Origin: Nitrospinota bacterium
GTDB taxonomy: Bacteria > Nitrospinota > Nitrospinia > Nitrospinales > VA-1
Length of the DNA stretch: 64,000 nucleotides
NCBI GenBank assembly: GCA_028345515.1
Contig: JAOMDP010000002.1
Location: 65,180-129,179, forward strand
Direction: 5' to 3'
The notes under the pieces are model-generated. The model was not told where the DNA came from, searched no databases, and was given only the letters and a program-made list of their open reading frames with translations. A program made the translations under genes and the position numbers. How positions within the stretch are numbered: position 1 is the stretch's first letter; each line of letters begins with the position of its first letter. Shown here piece by piece: positions 6,452 to 63,200 of the stretch.

Positions 6452-7225
6452 TTGGGAGAAATATTCAATTATTTGGCATTCGGATTTATGTTATGGATGT
6501 GCATGGATTGTATTCAAAGACGTGAACATTTTGTCTGGATAATAATTATAATTCTGCTTCCGCCAATTGGAGCCGTAGCATATTTTTTTGCAATCAAAAA
6601 TAGGTCTGGCAGTGTAGCCACAAGTAGGGCAACGGGCGGCAACATTATTCCTTTTGGTAAATCCGAGAGAAAAGAAGTAGAGACCGATGAAACTCTACAA
6701 TTAAAAGATTTAATTGGCAAATATCAAAAAGCATATCACTACGAAAAACTCGGACAAGCTTATGTTGAACAAAAAAATTATGACTCCGCTATAGCCAATT
6801 TTGAAGAAGCTATCCAGCGCGATCCTGAAATGCTGGAGGCTAGATACGGTCTTGCAAAATGCCTACATGGTTTGCAACGCTATGATGAAGCCGCTACCGC
6901 ATTAGAAAAACTAACCGCTCTGGATAAAAAATATGACTACGGAAATGCCATTTTTGGACTAGCTGAATCCTACCGTTTAGCTGGAAATGATGAAAAGGCA
7001 TTAGCCGCATATGGAGAAGTGATTAACTCGTTTCATTTCTTCAAAGCTTATTATCACTACGCACGGCTACTGGATAAAAATGGCAAAAAGCAGGAGGCCA
7101 TAGACTACATGAAAAGCATTGTTGGTTCCTCAAAAGATCTGCCTGATTATAAGCTGGAAAAAGAGCGCTTCTGGATCGATGAAGCCTATAAATATTTAAG
7201 GAAGAATGGCATTGAATTAGCATAA
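6452..7225 (+). CDS. Membrane protein with PLD-N-terminal-like small helix pair fused to TPR repeats
   Basis: N-terminus FVWIIIIILLPPIGAVAYFFAIKNR resembles the PLDc_N motif. The C-terminal 170 aa are TPR-like (AYVEQKNYDSAIANFEEAIQRDPEMLEA...). Confidence 0.65.
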   Translation: MGEIFNYLAFGFMLWMCMDCIQRREHFVWIIIIILLPPIGAVAYFFAIKNRSGSVATSRATGGNIIPFGKSERKEVETDETLQLKDLIGKYQKAYHYEKLGQAYVEQKNYDSAIANFEEAIQRDPEMLEARYGLAKCLHGLQRYDEAATALEKLTALDKKYDYGNAIFGLAESYRLAGNDEKALAAYGEVINSFHFFKAYYHYARLLDKNGKKQEAIDYMKSIVGSSKDLPDYKLEKERFWIDEAYKYLRKNGIELA

Positions 7226-7900: not shown

Positions 7901-9748
7901 CTATTTGCGTAGAAATTTTTTAAGGATGTCGTCCATATCGAATAGAAGCGATATGGGTCTTCCGTGTGGGCAGGTAAATGGCATACTCGTTTGCTCTAAA
8001 TCAGAAATCAGTTTGCGAATCTGTTCAAGGTTCAAAGGGTGGTTTACCTTAATTGCATTGCGGCAGGACATCATTATCAAGATATCTTCATATTTGTCAT
8101 GCAAAATATCTTCATGACCTCCTTTTGGAAGAAGCTCGATGGTATCTCGAAGTATTTTTTCATTATCAATATTTTTCAGAATAGCTGGAACAGAACGCAA
8201 AAGAAACTCGTTCTTACCAAAGGTTTCTAGTTCCAACCCCAAATGTTGCAATCGTTCAAGATGAGGAGTCAGTATTTCTGTCTCTGCAGCAGAGAGTTCA
8301 ACCGTAAGTGGAAATAAAAGGTTTTGCACTTCGATTTTTCTTTCCTTTGCTGCTTCGCGGAACCTTTCATATAAAATTCGTTCATGGGCCACATGTTGGT
8401 CTACCACCAATAATCCCTTTTTTCCCTGCATAATAATAAATGAGCTATCTAACTGACCCAGCGGTTCAAATTCGGAGTAAATAAGATTCGAAACTGGAAT
8501 GGGTGGCTTATCGAAACCTATAACCTGTTGGGGTGAAGAAGGCACTTGCTGTTCGAAACCAACTGAATAATTCTTTCCTCTTAAAAGCTCGGATATTTTT
8601 TCTTGTTCAAACGAACAAGTTTCATACTTTTTGCTCACTCCAGAAGGTATCTTTTGTTTAAAAACGCGATTTTGAGAACTGGGACTTATTGGGATATCGT
8701 CATAAACAGGTCGAGTTTCTTCGACCGGTGTCTGTACATTTTTCTCAAGGGCATCGCGGATACTTCGTGATACAAATTGATGAACATCCTGCTGAAAAGC
8801 AAAACGCACCTCAGCTTTAGAGGGGTGAACATTCACATCCAATAACTTGGGGTCCATGTTCAAAAATAAAAATAGGGCCGGATGTTGACCTTTTGGCAAT
8901 AAATGACTATATCCTTGCTGTGTGGCATGAAGTATTACCTTATCACGGACGAATCGTCCATTGATGAAGCAATATTGTGCAGACCGATTAGATCGGCTAT
9001 ATACCGGATTTGAAACATAGCCTTGCAGCTTATAATCTGCGGAATTTGATGTAACCTGCACCAATGACTTGGCAAGATCAGCTCCAAAAAGTTCTGCTAT
9101 ACGGTAATGAATCTGATCGGTGGGCAGAGTTTGAATGACCTCCCTGCCATTATGAGTAAGTTGAAAGTGAATGTTTGGATAAGCTAACGCATGTTGCGTG
9201 ACCACCTGAGTAATATGTGAAAACTCGGTAGAGTCTCCTTTTAAAAATTTACTACGTGCAGGGGTCACATAAAATAATTGATCCACTTCAATTGTTGTCC
9301 CTTGCGGACAAGCAAAATCTTTTTCTTCTATAAGGTTTCCCCCCTCTATTACGATTAATTTTCCTCCTTGATTTTCATTACGAGCACTAATGCAGCGAAC
9401 CTTTGAAACGGAGGCAACACTAGGTAAAGCTTCTCCTCGAAAGCCCAGCGATCGAATAGACTCTAGATCGCTAAATTCAGAAATTTTACTGGTTGCATGC
9501 CTGGAGAAAGCGATACTGCACTCTTCTGGCAACATCCCAATACCATTATCCATAACACGAATTTTCTTTTTACCTCCGCCCTCAATATCTAGTCGAATAA
9601 TAGTAGCGCCTGCATCGATTGAGTTTTCAACCAACTCCTTAACAACAGAGGCCGGTCGTTCCACGACCTCCCCTGCGGCTATCTGGTTTGCCAAATCTTC
9701 AGAAAGAACACGTATTTGCGGGTTATTTTTATCTTCCGGGGAGAACAT
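7901..9748 (-). CDS. mutL: DNA mismatch repair protein MutL
   Basis: IRVLSEDLANQIAAGEVVERPASVVKELVENSIDAG, GFRGEAL, and a C-terminal dimerisation domain. 615 aa. Confidence 0.95.
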   Translation of the reverse strand: MFSPEDKNNPQIRVLSEDLANQIAAGEVVERPASVVKELVENSIDAGATIIRLDIEGGGKKKIRVMDNGIGMLPEECSIAFSRHATSKISEFSDLESIRSLGFRGEALPSVASVSKVRCISARNENQGGKLIVIEGGNLIEEKDFACPQGTTIEVDQLFYVTPARSKFLKGDSTEFSHITQVVTQHALAYPNIHFQLTHNGREVIQTLPTDQIHYRIAELFGADLAKSLVQVTSNSADYKLQGYVSNPVYSRSNRSAQYCFINGRFVRDKVILHATQQGYSHLLPKGQHPALFLFLNMDPKLLDVNVHPSKAEVRFAFQQDVHQFVSRSIRDALEKNVQTPVEETRPVYDDIPISPSSQNRVFKQKIPSGVSKKYETCSFEQEKISELLRGKNYSVGFEQQVPSSPQQVIGFDKPPIPVSNLIYSEFEPLGQLDSSFIIMQGKKGLLVVDQHVAHERILYERFREAAKERKIEVQNLLFPLTVELSAAETEILTPHLERLQHLGLELETFGKNEFLLRSVPAILKNIDNEKILRDTIELLPKGGHEDILHDKYEDILIMMSCRNAIKVNHPLNLEQIRKLISDLEQTSMPFTCPHGRPISLLFDMDDILKKFLRK

Positions 9749-54333: not shown

Positions 54334-54407
54334 TCGGGTATCGTCTAATGGTAGGACGTTAGATTCTGGTTCTAAAGGTTGGGGTTCGACTCCCTGTACC
54401 CGAGCCA
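54334..54407 (+). tRNA. tRNA-Gln (anticodon CUG), CCA encoded
   Basis: Hand-folded cloverleaf. Acceptor TCGGGTA/TACCCGA with the U1-A72 pair typical of bacterial tRNA-Gln. D stem GTCT/GGAC. Anticodon arm TTAGA-TTCTGGT-TCTAA. T arm TGGGG-TTCGACT-CCCTG. Discriminator G followed by CCA. Confidence 0.9.
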
Positions 54408-55102: not shown

Positions 55103-55249
55103 CTACTCCTTAAGCCCAAAAGCCTTGCCTGAAATCTCTAAATCTTTACTTTTTAATGTTTTAATTTGTTCGTTTGCAAGTTTTAGTTGAGATTCAACAA
55201 TTGCCAAACGCACCTTTAATTGATTATTTTTATCAAATTTAAGCTTCAT
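55103..55249 (-). CDS. Possible small coiled-coil protein (48 aa)
   Basis: Hand-translated ORF MKLKFDKNNQLKVRLAIVESQLKLANEQIKTLKSKDLEISGKAFGLKE. GGAGGA RBS lies 7 nt upstream of the ATG at 55249. Below the track threshold. Confidence 0.4.
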   Translation of the reverse strand: MKLKFDKNNQLKVRLAIVESQLKLANEQIKTLKSKDLEISGKAFGLKE

Positions 55250-55297
55250 ACAATTATCCTCCTAAATTTTTAAATGAATCAATGAATATAGAAAAGC

Positions 55298-55327
55298 TTG
55301 ACATTTTCCAACCTTTTTTATGATAAT
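55298..55327 (+). promoter_or_regulatory. Sigma70-like promoter
   Basis: TTGACA (55298-55303), 18-nt spacer, GATAAT (55322-55327). Confidence 0.55.
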
Positions 55328-55340
55328 GATAATCATTATT
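55322..55340 (+). promoter_or_regulatory. Fur box (ferric uptake regulator operator)
   Basis: GATAATGATAATCATTATT matches 18 of 19 positions of the classical consensus GATAATGATAATCATTATC. It overlaps the -10 hexamer. Confidence 0.75.
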
Positions 55341-55380
55341 AAAATCAAGTATTATTTTACTTAATTAATTAGGAAACAAA

Positions 55381-55521
55381 GTGTTCGAAAAAACATACTT
55401 ACTAATTGTTGGGGTAATCGCAATCGCCAATTTATTTCTGATTATCCTATCTATTTTTTACTCCACCAATCTATTCAATACTTTTTTTGAGAAGTTATTC
55501 GTATTGCAAGGGATCACATAA
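55381..55521 (+). CDS. Possible small membrane peptide (46 aa)
   Basis: GTG start with an AGGAAA RBS 5 nt upstream. One TM helix (LLIVGVIAIANLFLIILSIF). First ORF after the Fur-box promoter. Confidence 0.35.
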   Translation: MFEKTYLLIVGVIAIANLFLIILSIFYSTNLFNTFFEKLFVLQGIT

Positions 55522-55556
55522 GCTCGATGTTTAAGCTTGAAGATTGGAATTAGATT

Positions 55557-55739
55557 ATGACTAATAAAACTCTTTTCATATTGGTCCTGATATTAGGAGC
55601 TTTTTTTTTGGCTTTAAACATCATGATTTTAAATCCAACTAAAAATCAAATTCCAAACCAGATTAAAACAGTCAACCCAAAAATTATTAGTCCAATAGAT
55701 TCCACAGAAACTTTGAAAAATGATGGATCCATTAAATAA
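55557..55739 (+). CDS. Possible small membrane protein (60 aa)
   Basis: ATG ORF. N-terminal TM helix (LFILVLILGAFFLALNIMIL) followed by a Pro/Asn/Ile-rich tail. Confidence 0.4.
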   Translation: MTNKTLFILVLILGAFFLALNIMILNPTKNQIPNQIKTVNPKIISPIDSTETLKNDGSIK

Positions 55740-55761
55740 ATTTTGTCTTGAATGGGAGAAC

Positions 55762-57489
55762 ATGATGATTAAGCAGCTAATACTTATTTTTTTCTGGTTA
55801 GCCTTAATAGCTGGGAATGCTTCGGGGATGCAAATAACCAATTCAAATTTTCAACAAATTTCTCCTAAAACAGGGTTCCTGGTTTTAGCACCAGACCGCG
55901 GTTTTGTAGGAAATAAGGAGACTCTTTCGGTTTTTAAAAATTTTAAAAAAGAATACTTGGCAAAAATTGTTTTTATTGGAAGAAAGTATGACGGATTAGA
56001 TAGTAATTATTCAGGATACATTCAAAAGGCCTTGTCGGGTTTTGATTCACTTTCCGTATCAAAGGTCGTAATTATTCCTCTATTTCTATCAAAATATAAT
56101 CACATTTTAAAGGAAGTAAGAAAACATCTTCCAGCATATAAATTTAAAGATCAGATTCATTGGAACGAAACTATGTCCGAGAGTTATCTAACTGGACAAA
56201 TACTTTTAGATCGTGTGAAAAAAATCAGTAAAAATTCAACCCAAGAAAAGCTTGTGATCCTTGGAAGAGGAGCACTTAATGAAAAGTCAGAGAATTTTAT
56301 GAAAAAAGAACTCGAGGGGTTATCTGATTATATAAAACAAAGAAAGGAATTTAAAAGTATTCAAACAGGTATTTATTACAGTTATAACGCAAAAGAAAAA
56401 CTCAGAGTAACCAAAGACAATGAAGTTGATGAAATGGTTATACATACTGCGGCAAAAAAGGGAAACACCTTGGTAATACCTTTTTTTATAGGTCCAAAAT
56501 ATTCAAATATGATGTCTTTGACTCATTTTTTTGACCGTAGGTTCCGGGACATAGACATTATTCATAATCCAGAAGAGATCTTGCTTCACCCAAATGTCCT
56601 GCTTTGGATGAAAAAAACTGCAAATAAATATATACCTTTAAATAGTCACGAACCCATTGGCATTGTGATAATGCCCCACGGCGCAACGCAACCTTACAAT
56701 GATGCAGTTGAAAAAACTATAGAACCTCTAAGGTCAAAGTATAAAGTTGAAATGGCCTATGGGATGGGTGATGCCGTAACTATTCAAAATGCGGTTTCTA
56801 ATCTTGAGTTTCAGGGTGTGAAAAAAATCGTATTTGTAAGGATGTATCCAACATCTGATCAGCTTAAAGAAAAAACGGATTATATCTTGGGATTGAGCGC
56901 AAAAATACCTGAACAGTGGGATGGATTAACTCCGCCTCAAATTAGAAGCAGCGCTATCATAAATACTTTTGGGGGATACGAGGAAGATAATCTGATTGCA
57001 GGAATATTTTTAGAAAGAATTAAAGAAGTCAGTAAAAAACCAAAAGAAGAAACGATTGTTTTGCTAGCTCACGGAAGTAGTGATGATCAAGCAGAGGTTT
57101 TGCGAAAAAAGAAAATGAAGAATCATATCGATTGGATTCAGAAACAGTTCAATCCTCCTTTTAAAAATATAAAAGGTATGGCTTTGAGAGAGGATTGGCC
57201 AGACAAAAGAGAAAAAGCCTTGAACGAGATTAAAAATATTATAGAGGAAGGAAATAAACGAGGACGGGTTATTGTGATTTCAAACCGTCTTTACGGAAGT
57301 GGCCCTTACAAACATTTCCTTAAAGGATTGAATTTTGAAATGAACTCAAAGGGATTAGCACCACACCCTAATTTAACAAGTTGGTTAGAAAAGGGTATAG
57401 CGTCAGTAATAAAAAATGAATTTTCTAAACAAATTTCAAATCAAAACGTAACTGATTTGAATATAAAGGTTTCGTCCACTATCAGGTAA
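55762..57489 (+). CDS. Secreted protein with four tandem CbiX/SirB-like (class II chelatase fold) modules
   Basis: ATG at 55762 with a GGGAGA RBS. Signal peptide MMIKQLILIFFWLALIAGNASG. Module starts are LVLAPDRGF, LVILGRGALN, VIMPHGATQPYND and VLLAHGSSDD. Module ends are VVIIPLFLSKYNH, LVIPFFIGPKYSN, IVFVRMYPTSDQ and VIVISNRLYGSGPY. Confidence 0.75.
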   Translation: MMIKQLILIFFWLALIAGNASGMQITNSNFQQISPKTGFLVLAPDRGFVGNKETLSVFKNFKKEYLAKIVFIGRKYDGLDSNYSGYIQKALSGFDSLSVSKVVIIPLFLSKYNHILKEVRKHLPAYKFKDQIHWNETMSESYLTGQILLDRVKKISKNSTQEKLVILGRGALNEKSENFMKKELEGLSDYIKQRKEFKSIQTGIYYSYNAKEKLRVTKDNEVDEMVIHTAAKKGNTLVIPFFIGPKYSNMMSLTHFFDRRFRDIDIIHNPEEILLHPNVLLWMKKTANKYIPLNSHEPIGIVIMPHGATQPYNDAVEKTIEPLRSKYKVEMAYGMGDAVTIQNAVSNLEFQGVKKIVFVRMYPTSDQLKEKTDYILGLSAKIPEQWDGLTPPQIRSSAIINTFGGYEEDNLIAGIFLERIKEVSKKPKEETIVLLAHGSSDDQAEVLRKKKMKNHIDWIQKQFNPPFKNIKGMALREDWPDKREKALNEIKNIIEEGNKRGRVIVISNRLYGSGPYKHFLKGLNFEMNSKGLAPHPNLTSWLEKGIASVIKNEFSKQISNQNVTDLNIKVSSTIR

Positions 57490-57547
57490 GCAAAGGATAA
57501 TCGTTAATCTCTTAAAAATAATATTTTAAATTAGAAAGGATAAGTCG

Positions 57548-58234
57548 ATGAAAAAGTTACTTTATTCTTTAATTATTGGCGTGTTTGTTTTGCTGGTGCA
57601 AAATGCTATGGCTCAAATGCCTCCTCCAACGGCACCGCCTGGTACGCCTCCGATGGCAGGCCGCACTGTTGATGAGTGCAAACAAATGAAACCCCGAGGC
57701 GACTACCAGTTAATGAAAGACAAGAAAAGGTGTTTCAGGGATGCTGCAAGAGCATTAGGGGCAGAGGAAATTGCACCAGGGGAATTACAAAGGTGCAAAC
57801 AAATAAAAGCCCGAGGCGATTTCGCCTTGATGAAACAAAAGAAAAATTGCATGAGAGACCTTGCAAGATCTTTGATGGCTGGTCCGGGTATAGCTCCAAC
57901 AGGAGATCCTAACATGCCTCCAACAGGCGTTCCTAACATGCCTCCTCCAACGGCACCGCCTGGTACGCCTCCGATGGCAGGCCGCACTGTTGATGAGTGC
58001 AAACAAATGAAACCCCGAGGCGACTACCAGTTAATGAAAGACAAGAAAAGGTGTTTCAGGGATGCTGCAAGAGCATTAGGGGCAGAGGAAATTGCACCAG
58101 GGGAATTACAAAGGTGCAAACAAATAAAAGCCCGAGGCGATTTCGCCTTGATGAAACAAAAGAAAAATTGCATGAGGGACCTTGCAAGATCTTTGATGGC
58201 TGGTCCGGGTATAGCTCCAGGAACAAATCCGTAA
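57548..58234 (+). CDS. Secreted Pro/Cys-rich tandem-repeat protein with four RGD motifs
   Basis: Signal peptide MKKLLYSLIIGVFVLLVQNAMA. Two identical 94-aa units, each with two C-x17-C sub-repeats (CKQMKPRGDYQLMKDKKRC, CKQIKARGDFALMKQKKNC). AAAGGA RBS. Confidence 0.8.
   Translation: MKKLLYSLIIGVFVLLVQNAMAQMPPPTAPPGTPPMAGRTVDECKQMKPRGDYQLMKDKKRCFRDAARALGAEEIAPGELQRCKQIKARGDFALMKQKKNCMRDLARSLMAGPGIAPTGDPNMPPTGVPNMPPPTAPPGTPPMAGRTVDECKQMKPRGDYQLMKDKKRCFRDAARALGAEEIAPGELQRCKQIKARGDFALMKQKKNCMRDLARSLMAGPGIAPGTNP
57617..58219 (+). repeat. Tandem direct duplication, period 321 bp
   Basis: 57617-57898 and 57938-58219 differ at one position by eye (AGA vs AGG Arg codon, near 57856 and 58177). The 39-bp linker carries a short internal direct repeat of CCTAACATGCCTCC. 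Confidence 0.95.
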
Positions 58235-58397
58235 CGGAACTCCTGGAAATTAATAATTGATTGTATCCAAGCCCACGGGGCTGAGAAAAAGATGATCTTC
58301 TCCGCTTGTCCAAGTTTTTCTATATCCAAAATAGAAAAACTTGGAACAACAGAGCAAGACAGGCTTCTTTCTAATCCCTAAAGGGAGAAGTCTCTGG

Positions 58398-58441
58398 ATC
58401 AGAAGGGGTTGGGTCCCCATTACCAATCCCTTCTGATTTTC
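58398..58441 (+). terminator. Hairpin with short T-tract, possible terminator of the 55.3-58.2 kb transcription unit
   Basis: Perfect 10-bp stem ATCAGAAGGG/CCCTTCTGAT (58398-58407 / 58428-58437), 20-nt loop, followed by TTT. Confidence 0.4.
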
Positions 58442-58682
58442 AAACAAAAGGATTTTACTATGCAAGCCAAATTAAAATAGATATCTGGAAGGTGTCTCCA
58501 AGTCCAACCCCCAAGATAACTCTAATTTCTAACTAGCAGATACCTTAGTTCGAAGCGAAACAGGCTTTCTTTGATAGAAAGCTCTGGGTAAGCGGAAAGG
58601 GGTTGCGCCCTTTTCGCTTATCACGCTTTGCAAACCTTAATTTATTAAAAACAAACTTTTTGAGGATCAATGGAGAAATATT

Positions 58683-59417
58683 ATGAAAAAGTTTTACTTA
58701 ATAGCTGTCATTATAGGAACTATTTTTATAACTATTGTAAGTGGTTGTGCTGTCAAAACTGTCGACACAAAAAACGTAAATCAGGAAATGGAAAGATCAA
58801 AAAAAGCTCCTGTCGTAGGTAAAATTCCTGCTAAAGAAAAAACAATTGAACCTCCAATAAAAAAAATTATTCCAGATAAAAATTTGTCATCTTTTATCGT
58901 GGAAGAAAGCCTGACAAATGAAAATAATATTGATAAATTTTCCGATTCGAATATTGATGATATTAATTTAATGCAAACCGAAAAAGCAACACCATCAAAA
59001 GAGCAGTTTAATCCATTCTTCAATCCAAATTCTAACGACAACGAGAAAAAGGATACTAATACAAAATTTATTCAATCTGAAAAACTAGATGATGTTTATT
59101 TCAGTTTTGATCAATACAACATAGATGAATCGGCAAAAAAGATTCTATCTAAAAACGCAGAGTGGCTTAAATATAACCCCGCCTTAAAGATTCAGTTGGC
59201 AGGTCATTGTGATGAAAGAGGAACCAATAATTATAATATTGCTTTAGGAGATAGACGGGCACTTTATGTAAAGAAGCAGCTCGCATTTTTAGGCATAAGT
59301 GAGAATAGAATGTTTGCAATCAGTTATGGGGAAGAAAAACCAACTTGCTCGGAAGGTGAAGAGAAATGCTGGAGAAAAAATCGTCGTGTTCAATTTTTAA
59401 TAATTTCTGATCAATGA
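58683..59417 (+). CDS. pal: Peptidoglycan-associated OmpA-domain lipoprotein (Pal-like) with long linker
   Basis: Lipobox IVSGC. C-terminal VYFSFDQYNI...LAGHCDERGTNNYNIALGDRRA...ISYGEEKP is the Pal/OmpA_C signature. A 100-aa low-complexity linker is present. Confidence 0.85.
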   Translation: MKKFYLIAVIIGTIFITIVSGCAVKTVDTKNVNQEMERSKKAPVVGKIPAKEKTIEPPIKKIIPDKNLSSFIVEESLTNENNIDKFSDSNIDDINLMQTEKATPSKEQFNPFFNPNSNDNEKKDTNTKFIQSEKLDDVYFSFDQYNIDESAKKILSKNAEWLKYNPALKIQLAGHCDERGTNNYNIALGDRRALYVKKQLAFLGISENRMFAISYGEEKPTCSEGEEKCWRKNRRVQFLIISDQ

Positions 59418-63128: not shown

Positions 63129-63200
63129 GGCCCCATCGTCTAGCGGCTAGGACGCTGGCCTCTCACGCCGGAAACAGGGGTTCGATTCCCCGTAGTGCCA
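63129..63200 (+). tRNA. tRNA-Glu (anticodon CUC)-like gene with imperfect acceptor stem, no encoded CCA
   Basis: Aligns module by module with E. coli tRNA-Glu. Acceptor GGCCCCA, D arm GTC-TAGCGGCTAG-GAC, anticodon arm CTGGC-CTCTCAC-GCCGG, T arm AGGGG-TTCGATT-CCCCG. The 3' acceptor strand TAGTGCC gives C4-U69 and C6-A67 mismatches, and 49-65 is A-G. Confidence 0.65.

Follow-up and report, generated by a model that had tools for sequence, protein, structure and literature searches.

We analysed a 64-kb stretch of DNA, hereafter the window, from an uncultured marine Nitrospina (Nitrospinota; assembly GCA_028345515.1, contig JAOMDP010000002.1), and found a near-perfect Fur-type operator lying on the core promoter of a small operon that encodes, among others, an apparently exported protein of 575 amino acids (aa) with a predicted tandem chelatase fold. 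Very probably, this operator represses the promoter by occlusion when iron is sufficient, and derepression would yield proteins for iron or heme acquisition in the periplasm. The regulatory mechanism is a textbook one; more unusual are the target family and the ties that it shows, across phyla, to Fur boxes and to TonB and HmuY genes.

A probable Fur-type operator on the core promoter

Direct reading of the window around the site gave aagcTTGACAttttccaaccttttttatGATAATGATAATCATTATTaaaatc, in which the 19-bp box GATAATGATAATCATTATT is identical to the Fur consensus GATAATGATAATCATTATC at 18 of 19 positions. The box begins at a GATAAT −10 hexamer, which follows a TTGACA −35 hexamer after 18 nt, so that operator and core promoter overlap; this arrangement had been proposed in an earlier note made from the sequence, and direct reading confirmed every element of it. 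In the literature on Fur of Bacillus subtilis and Escherichia coli, the 7-1-7 consensus is TGATAATnATTATCA and the 19-bp box is viewed as a site for two dimers. The operator can also be read in this way, as two overlapping 7-1-7 inverted repeats offset by 6 bp, TGATAATgATAATCA (55321–55335) and TGATAATcATTATTA (55327–55341), each of which is one mismatch from that consensus. The site thus resembles the Fur boxes of E. coli and B. subtilis both in its match to the 19-bp consensus and in its paired repeats. From the usual −10-to-start spacing, transcription is predicted to start at about 55334–55335, and as in classical Fur boxes the operator overlaps both the −10 hexamer and the predicted start, implying promoter occlusion. 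It differs from the classical cases in its host, an uncultured marine Nitrospina, and in its targets, which are not the classical siderophore, Feo or TonB genes.

The GC content is 30–42% in the window and about 36% locally, and AT-rich promoters naturally hold GATAAT- or TATAAT-like hexamers, so that the site might be a chance AT-rich palindrome, or merely a good constitutive promoter to which no regulator binds. The number of promoter-like matches between 54400 and 59800 pointed the same way, since 15 were found against 15.9 expected from shuffles. Because this count is not above chance, the promoter call rests on the quality and the conservation of the match. As to quality, TTGACA/GATAAT was the best sigma-70-like match in that region (11/12).

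The operator itself stood out against both of the controls that we applied. When up to three mismatches were allowed, it was the sole site in the window (counted on both strands, since it is near-palindromic), where 0.03 sites were expected from 100 dinucleotide-preserving shuffles. An independent weight matrix, trained on 11 sites from other loci with the window excluded, gave it 26.6 bits, more than any of 100 simulated 64-kb sequences (maximum score: mean 10.4, standard deviation 3.0, largest 21.1). The next independent site in the window, at 6538, reached 9.1 bits; this four-mismatch site (6538–6556) lies within an open reading frame (ORF), scores at chance level and was rejected. The mismatch scan and the weight matrix thus bore out the statement of the earlier note that the window holds no comparable site elsewhere. 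On these figures a chance origin is highly improbable, and the conservation described below has already largely refuted it.

Conservation of the operator across lineages

We scanned the contigs carrying orthologues of the 575-aa protein for the 19-mer, comparing lineages (numbered here with the prefix L) in which this protein shows 48–96% identity. In 9 of 10 lineages, Nitrospina watsonii among them, the string of orthologous genes is preceded by a Fur box with one to three mismatches. The box has one mismatch in L029 (GATAATGATTATCATAATC; 79% protein identity), two in L030/31 (76%) and three in L033–35 (73%), in each case upstream of the gene string. In L032 (68%), two overlapping boxes with one mismatch each are located 2 kb upstream and head a co-oriented string, and in L036–39 (57%) a box with two mismatches lies between the operon and a fur-family gene transcribed in the opposite direction. 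In N. watsonii (L040/41; 48%; orthologue at L040 7848–9698), the box GATAATGAAAATCATTATC, with one mismatch, is followed after 26 bp by a 36-aa membrane ORF and then by the chelatase-like gene, and in L043/44 and L045/46 (49–50%; GC 0.49–0.55) a box with one or two mismatches precedes the first operon gene by about 50 bp.

Across the box-anchored regions, the mean major-base frequency was 0.88 over the 19 columns of the box, compared with 0.50–0.56 in the flanks. The consensus of the orthologous boxes was TGATAATGATTATCA, which is the B. subtilis Fur 7-1-7 consensus. A box that is kept while its flanks diverge is, in such a sequence comparison, the pattern expected of a functional operator; AT-richness alone is insufficient to account for it, and cannot explain it in N. 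watsonii or in the unrelated, GC-richer contigs (GC content 0.49–0.55). In five of nine lineages (the window, L029, L032, L036 and L040) the box was preceded by a TTGAC(A/G) hexamer at a distance of 17–18 nt, and in L030, L033, L043 and L045 a TTGAC(A/T) hexamer was found at other distances. In L043/45 the box is nearer to the predicted start site.

A separate feature was observed in L032, at 7950–8040, where an inverted repeat of 21 bp (gacacaaatctctatatattc ... gaatatatagagatttgtgtc) includes both overlapping Fur boxes as well as TTGACA.

A predicted double chelatase-fold protein

The mechanical ORF of 589 aa has homologues of 90–92% identity in metagenome-assembled genomes (MAGs) labelled as uncultured Nitrospina sp. 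and of 48% in N. watsonii. Translation of the 575-aa protein likely starts at the Met of MMIKQ... at 55762, which fits the homologue lengths of 574–577 aa. Its match to Pfam CbiX was marginal (24.7 bits against a cutoff of 22, with no single stretch significant alone), and it failed the NCBIfam models CfbA and PRK00923 (39 bits against 120). A profile search of the PDB returned weak SirB/CbiX matches, the best of them to SirB (E = 0.002), and a single-sequence PDB search with the C-terminal unit yielded noise only. We then considered an AlphaFold2 model built on a 37-sequence alignment (mean predicted local distance difference test score 85.6, predicted template modelling score 0.84), which consists of an N-terminal helix, a disordered linker and four alpha/beta subdomains. 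Foldseek matched this model to SirB (target-normalised template modelling score, TM-score, 0.68–0.73), DR2241, CbiK, CpfC/HemH and the periplasmic CbiK of PDB entry 2xvz, with a probability of 1.00 for SirB, CbiK, CpfC/HemH and the periplasmic CbiK, CbiK(P); periplasmic binding proteins were also matched, at lower scores. The model has the two-lobed fold of these enzymes twice over, and according to it the protein is two tandem class II chelatase units.

The conserved residues are distributed unevenly between the two units. The His-Gly pair past strand 1 was kept only in subdomains 3 and 4, with H306 invariant and H437 present in at least 90% of the sequences, and the N-terminal unit has D45-R46-G47 in its place. 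The double-unit form probably arose by duplication, after which the N-terminal unit would have lost His-Gly. The canonical second metal-binding His (PLFL..H motif) was not conserved in any of the four subdomains. Among the invariant residues, Tyr, Arg, Glu and Lys are frequent (Y205, Y206, Y333, R360, Y362, Y406, E407, E408, R476, E477, R509 and Y516). Near its N-terminus the protein has a hydrophobic segment, MMIKQLILIFFWLALIAGNASG, which looks like a Sec-type signal and suggests export.

SirB and CbiX (PDB 5zt7–5zta and 6jv6) are the best structural matches, and share with the Nitrospina protein the C-terminal His-Gly pairs at H306 and H437. They differ from it in that they are cytoplasmic and the Nitrospina protein is predicted to be exported, and in the Asp-Arg-Gly that replaces His-Gly in its N-terminal unit; the failed NCBIfam models also set it apart. 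Its context is not that of cytoplasmic tetrapyrrole biosynthesis: besides the signal-like segment, its gene has small envelope proteins, pal and housekeeping genes as neighbours. The database names given to this family, "sirohydrochlorin ferro-/cobaltochelatase" and "protoheme ferro-lyase", are therefore probably misleading. Closer in predicted location is CbiK(P) of Desulfovibrio vulgaris (PDB 2xvz), an exported protein with the class II chelatase fold (target-normalised TM-score 0.60). The Nitrospina protein differs from it in its two tandem units, in its identity of 10–15%, which is at profile level only, and in the second His, which is not conserved.

The family yielded 446 word-index matches and about 250 clusters at 50% identity (E ≤ 1e-30), and among nitrifiers it has homologues in Nitrospina, Nitrospira, Nitrosomonas and Nitrosospira. 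There are also many single-unit proteins, about 300 aa long, whose match is confined to the C-terminal chelatase unit (profile positions about 290–547).

Gene neighbourhoods of the homologues

In L043–46, the operon encodes, in order, proteins of 63 and 83 aa, the chelatase-like protein, a 74-aa protein, a TonB-dependent receptor (4e-51) and an HmuY-domain protein (7e-21). A second receptor with ExbB-ExbD-TonB upstream is found behind its own Fur box in L045/46, the only loci in which ExbB/ExbD/TonB neighbours were seen. Using the L043 receptor and HmuY proteins as tblastn queries, we found that the chelatase-like gene also has a TonB-dependent receptor, an HmuY-domain protein or both as neighbours in L004 (Gammaproteobacteria), L017/18 (Spirochaetia) and L019 (Thermodesulfobacteriota), and that receptor or HmuY-like pieces occur in L005–L009 and L011–L016. 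The chelatase-like family is thus repeatedly embedded in HmuY/HmuR-type TonB-dependent uptake loci. The window protein has the signal-like segment, and the linkage to a TonB receptor or HmuY is seen in many homologous loci, not in the window. Taken together, these neighbourhoods in other phyla suggest a role in periplasmic heme or iron acquisition.

Genes of the fur family (PF01475) adjoin the orthologous operon in L036–39 and occur within a few kb of it in L043/44 and L046. The L043 Fur carries HHDH and two CxxC motifs. The copy in L036–39 is frameshifted, and intact versions of 143 aa were found elsewhere. When the reconstructed 143-aa Fur was used as the query in a search for homologues, only eight matches came back.

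We also noted other features of these loci. In L036 (1555–2010; also in L037–L039), a 1-nt frameshift separates the DNA-binding N-terminus from the rest of the divergent fur-family gene; it is identical across four independent assemblies, and the intact 143-aa counterparts are P0121 and P0123. This copy is possibly a pseudogene in that population. HU-like genes (PF00216) separate the Fur box from the chelatase-like gene in L032 (8069–8404 and 9346–9621), L033 (1896–2249) and L036 (2363–2996), and one is found just after pal in L030 (6160–6504); none occurs beside the window operon. Their position suggests that they are iron-regulated paralogues of nucleoid proteins. The small 63-, 83- and 74-aa proteins flanking the chelatase-like gene contain Cys (L043 7423–8004 and 9797–10021, with equivalents in L045/L046). 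Of these, the 83- and 74-aa proteins are mutually similar and the 74-aa protein weakly matches DUF6686, and small Cys-containing proteins recur in a Nitrospiria MAG (L010 1597–1755 and 5691–5792).

Proposed regulation and function

In the arrangement that we favour, metallated Fur would sit on the operator in iron-replete cells, most likely as two dimers on the two overlapping 7-1-7 repeats, and would occlude RNA polymerase. When iron is scarce, Fur would leave, and a transcript from near 55334 would run through the genes for a 46-aa membrane protein, the double chelatase-fold protein and a Cys-rich protein to a hairpin near 58440; a divergent gene for a 48-aa protein may be under repression by this operator as well. 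Iron acquisition in the periplasm is the most likely role of the products, and the chelatase-fold protein would there bind heme, a metalloporphyrin or an iron chelate and possibly strip its iron. The earlier note had recognised the geometry of an iron-repressed promoter, and this view gains support from the conserved box, the adjoining fur-family genes and the TonB-receptor/HmuY loci.

Several observations weigh against this interpretation. L003/L042 (Nitrospinales; GC 0.58; 48% protein identity) have only a five-mismatch site, 182 bp upstream, and L004–L006 have none at up to five mismatches, though the homologous gene is present. The spacing between the box and the −35 hexamer varies in L030, L033 and L043/45, and the score of 11/12 was obtained against the sigma-70 consensus, where the promoter rules of Nitrospinota are not experimentally established. 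No Fur homologue was found in the window by tblastn with E. coli Fur and L036 Fur as queries, and no transporter gene adjoins the operon there, its neighbours being housekeeping genes. Finally, Fur and PerR-type boxes differ by only one or two positions in sequence.

This last point opens the way to an alternative in which the operator is bound by another Fur-family paralogue (PerR-, Zur-, Mur- or Nur-like) and responds to peroxide or another metal instead of iron. The boxes of this family are much alike, and TGATAATcATTATTA is two mismatches from the B. subtilis PerR consensus TTATAATnATTATAA, compared with one from the Fur consensus; the adjoining regulators in L036–39 and L043–46, moreover, are assigned at the level of the Pfam family only (PF01475). 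However, the discriminating G/C at 7-1-7 positions 2 and 14 is of the Fur type both in the first repeat of the window and in the orthologue consensus TGATAATGATTATCA, and the adjoining Fur proteins have the HHDH motif typical of Fur. The TonB receptor/HmuY loci of other phyla, with ExbBD-TonB in L045/46, likewise fit iron or heme uptake and not a response to peroxide or zinc. We consider control by such a paralogue quite improbable.

As for the function of the operon under Fur control, the heme uptake system of Porphyromonas gingivalis offers a comparison. In this bacterium, IhtB is a CbiK-like heme-binding lipoprotein and putative reverse ferrochelatase, heme is imported by HmuY/HmuR, and transcripts of the iht operon were unchanged under iron and heme starvation (PMC12094164). 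IhtB, which we compared by description only, resembles the Nitrospina protein in being a chelatase-like protein with apparent export, and its genetic linkage to a TonB-dependent receptor has a parallel in many homologous loci, which also have HmuY neighbours. The Nitrospina protein differs from IhtB in having no lipobox and no adjoining receptor or HmuY gene in the window, and the unchanged iht transcripts differ from the iron control that the Nitrospina Fur box predicts. We take IhtB and the periplasmic CbiK of D. vulgaris as precedents for exported CbiK-like proteins in heme or iron uptake, and the 575-aa protein may resemble both in its possible working mode.

The operator could also be real and the operon serve something other than uptake, such as iron sparing or cofactor handling in the periplasm (for example, delivery of heme or metal to respiratory enzymes of the periplasm, nitrite oxidoreductase among them) or the binding of ferric ions free of porphyrin. 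This explanation overlaps with the one that we favour in its regulatory part. It would suit the occurrence of homologues in several nitrifiers, the lack of conservation at the second CbiX/SirB metal-binding His and the invariant Tyr, Arg, Glu and Lys, which would also be suited to Fe(III) or anion binding; the lower-scoring fold matches to periplasmic binding proteins and the lack of an adjoining transporter gene in the window agree with it as well. On the other hand, Fur repression under iron sufficiency is typical of acquisition functions, and the repeated adjacency to TonB-dependent receptors and HmuY-domain proteins across phyla points to the handling of an imported substrate. We regard a function outside uptake as unlikely, although deserving of some weight.

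Within the acquisition reading, we tentatively propose, with considerable doubt, that the 46-aa protein and the tandem chelatase-fold unit form an unrecognised periplasmic iron-acquisition module, which would bind imported heme, metalloporphyrin or iron chelate and release iron as a reverse chelatase. In the ocean, nitrite is oxidised mainly by Nitrospina, whose nitrite oxidoreductase and respiratory chain are iron-demanding. If the proposal is true, the module would be common to marine nitrite oxidisers and to many TonB-receptor/HmuY loci in other phyla, and could explain the iron supply of the iron-hungry, genome-streamlined Nitrospina. In the searchable literature we found neither a Fur regulon nor dedicated iron-acquisition genes described for Nitrospina, and nothing relevant on the 575-aa protein family or on CbiX in combination with a Fur box and TonB; the genome paper of Nitrospina gracilis does not mention Fur. 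The conserved operator could serve as a seed motif for reconstructing the Fur regulon of Nitrospinota, and the operon as a candidate iron-stress marker, at transcript or protein level, when oxygen-minimum and mesopelagic zones are studied by metatranscriptomics and metaproteomics. The operator would also give a testable function to an exported double chelatase-fold family that is now automatically named as cytoplasmic sirohydrochlorin or protoheme chelatase.

Transcription units and surrounding features

The features of the operon and its surroundings are listed in Table 1.

Table 1. Features at and around the Fur operator (positions in the window)
Feature	Position	Strand	Remarks
Divergent gene, 48-aa coiled-coil-like protein	55103–55249	−	Strong AGGAGG ribosome-binding site
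−35 hexamer TTGACA	55298–55303	+	Direct reading; belongs to the top promoter-like match of the region (11/12)
Spacer, 18 nt	55304–55321		Direct reading
Candidate minus-strand promoter TTGATT-17-TATCAT, bracketing the Fur box	55320–55348	−	Consensus match only (9/12); weak evidence
Fur operator	55321–55341	Strandless	19-bp box GATAATGATAATCATTATT at 55322–55340
−10 hexamer GATAAT	55322–55327	+	Doubles as first hexamer of the Fur box
46-aa single-pass membrane protein, first operon gene	55381–55521	+	Starts VFEK/MFEK; GTG start, AGGA ribosome-binding site
60-aa ORF, doubtful gene	55557–55739	+	
575-aa double chelatase-fold protein, predicted exported	55762–57489	+	Mechanical ORF (589 aa) from 55720
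228-aa secreted Cys-rich protein	57548–58234	+	Signal peptide; 321-bp tandem duplication at 57617–58219
Terminator-like hairpin, then UUUUC	58396–58445	+	Hairpin 58396–58439; 17-bp stem, −26.7 kcal/mol, z = −4.6
Pal (peptidoglycan-associated lipoprotein)	58683–59417	+	TIGR02802 129.2 bits, cutoff 125.35; OmpA domain 8e-19

The earlier note had described the genes from 55381 to 58234 as uncharacterised envelope genes. This description could be refined to a membrane protein, a double chelatase-fold protein and a Cys-rich protein, with the exception of the 60-aa ORF, whose status is doubtful. Homologues of the 46-aa protein are encoded directly or a short way ahead of the chelatase-like gene in L029 (78%), L030/31 (54%), L033–35 (51%), L036–39 (41%) and L032 (9669–9818); the protein matched no Pfam or NCBIfam family. 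The 60-aa ORF was rejected as a conserved gene, as it had no tblastn match in any related locus; L030 lacks the ORF, and in L029 the matching region is a partial duplication that has degenerated. The distribution of the 228-aa protein is lineage-restricted, since a database of 5.8 billion proteins contained only five homologues; L001 has its gene and L002 lacks it. The tandem duplication in it (1.9 copies, 99% identity) is shared by the homologue P0129 (92%). This duplication doubles a secreted module with two C-x17-C motifs (CKQ[MI]K[PA]RGD[YF].LMK.KK.C).

The Fur-controlled transcript probably ends at the hairpin near 58440. This hairpin is conserved in L002 with one compensatory change from A-U to G-C, and was missed by a simple terminator scan because its loop is 10 nt long. 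Downstream of it lies pal, which also comes after the chelatase-like gene in L002, L030 and L032; its product exceeds the equivalog cutoff, and its N-terminus, MKKFYLIAVIIGTIFITIVSGC, ends with a lipobox-like SGC. The suggestion in the earlier note that the run might reach 59417 appears unlikely, since the conserved hairpin and U-tract intervene; we judged the inclusion of pal in the Fur unit unlikely on the same grounds, and pal is probably a separate transcription unit. On the other side of the operator, the divergent 48-aa gene is part of this conserved group of genes and may share the same operator. Its homologue has the same divergent position in L029 (55%), and in L032 (8431–8637) it is co-oriented and downstream of the Fur box. 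Other neighbours in the window include mnmA, rsmD, a tRNA, arginine/ornithine decarboxylases, an M48 peptidase and a cytochrome b-like protein.

Searching for structured RNAs, we found only two tRNAs at the Rfam gathering score in the whole window (54334–54404 and 63129–63200), and a permissive RNA-family scan of 55200–58750 gave chance-level matches only. The predicted 5′ untranslated region (UTR) is unstructured (z = −0.2), and a riboswitch is for this reason not involved. Folding was much stronger in the gap before pal, with z = −6.9 for 58235–58682 and z = −8.3 for a perfect hairpin at 58310–58344. The part of this gap at 58280–58450 occurs once in the window and had no match in Rfam. Over about 170 nt it is nearly 100% identical to L002 1100–1270, and it contains three long hairpins, and the gap before pal also holds an ORF of 29–32 aa (MKKMIFSACPSFSISKIEKLG...). 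The gap could be a small RNA, a 3′-UTR element or a mere cluster of terminators.

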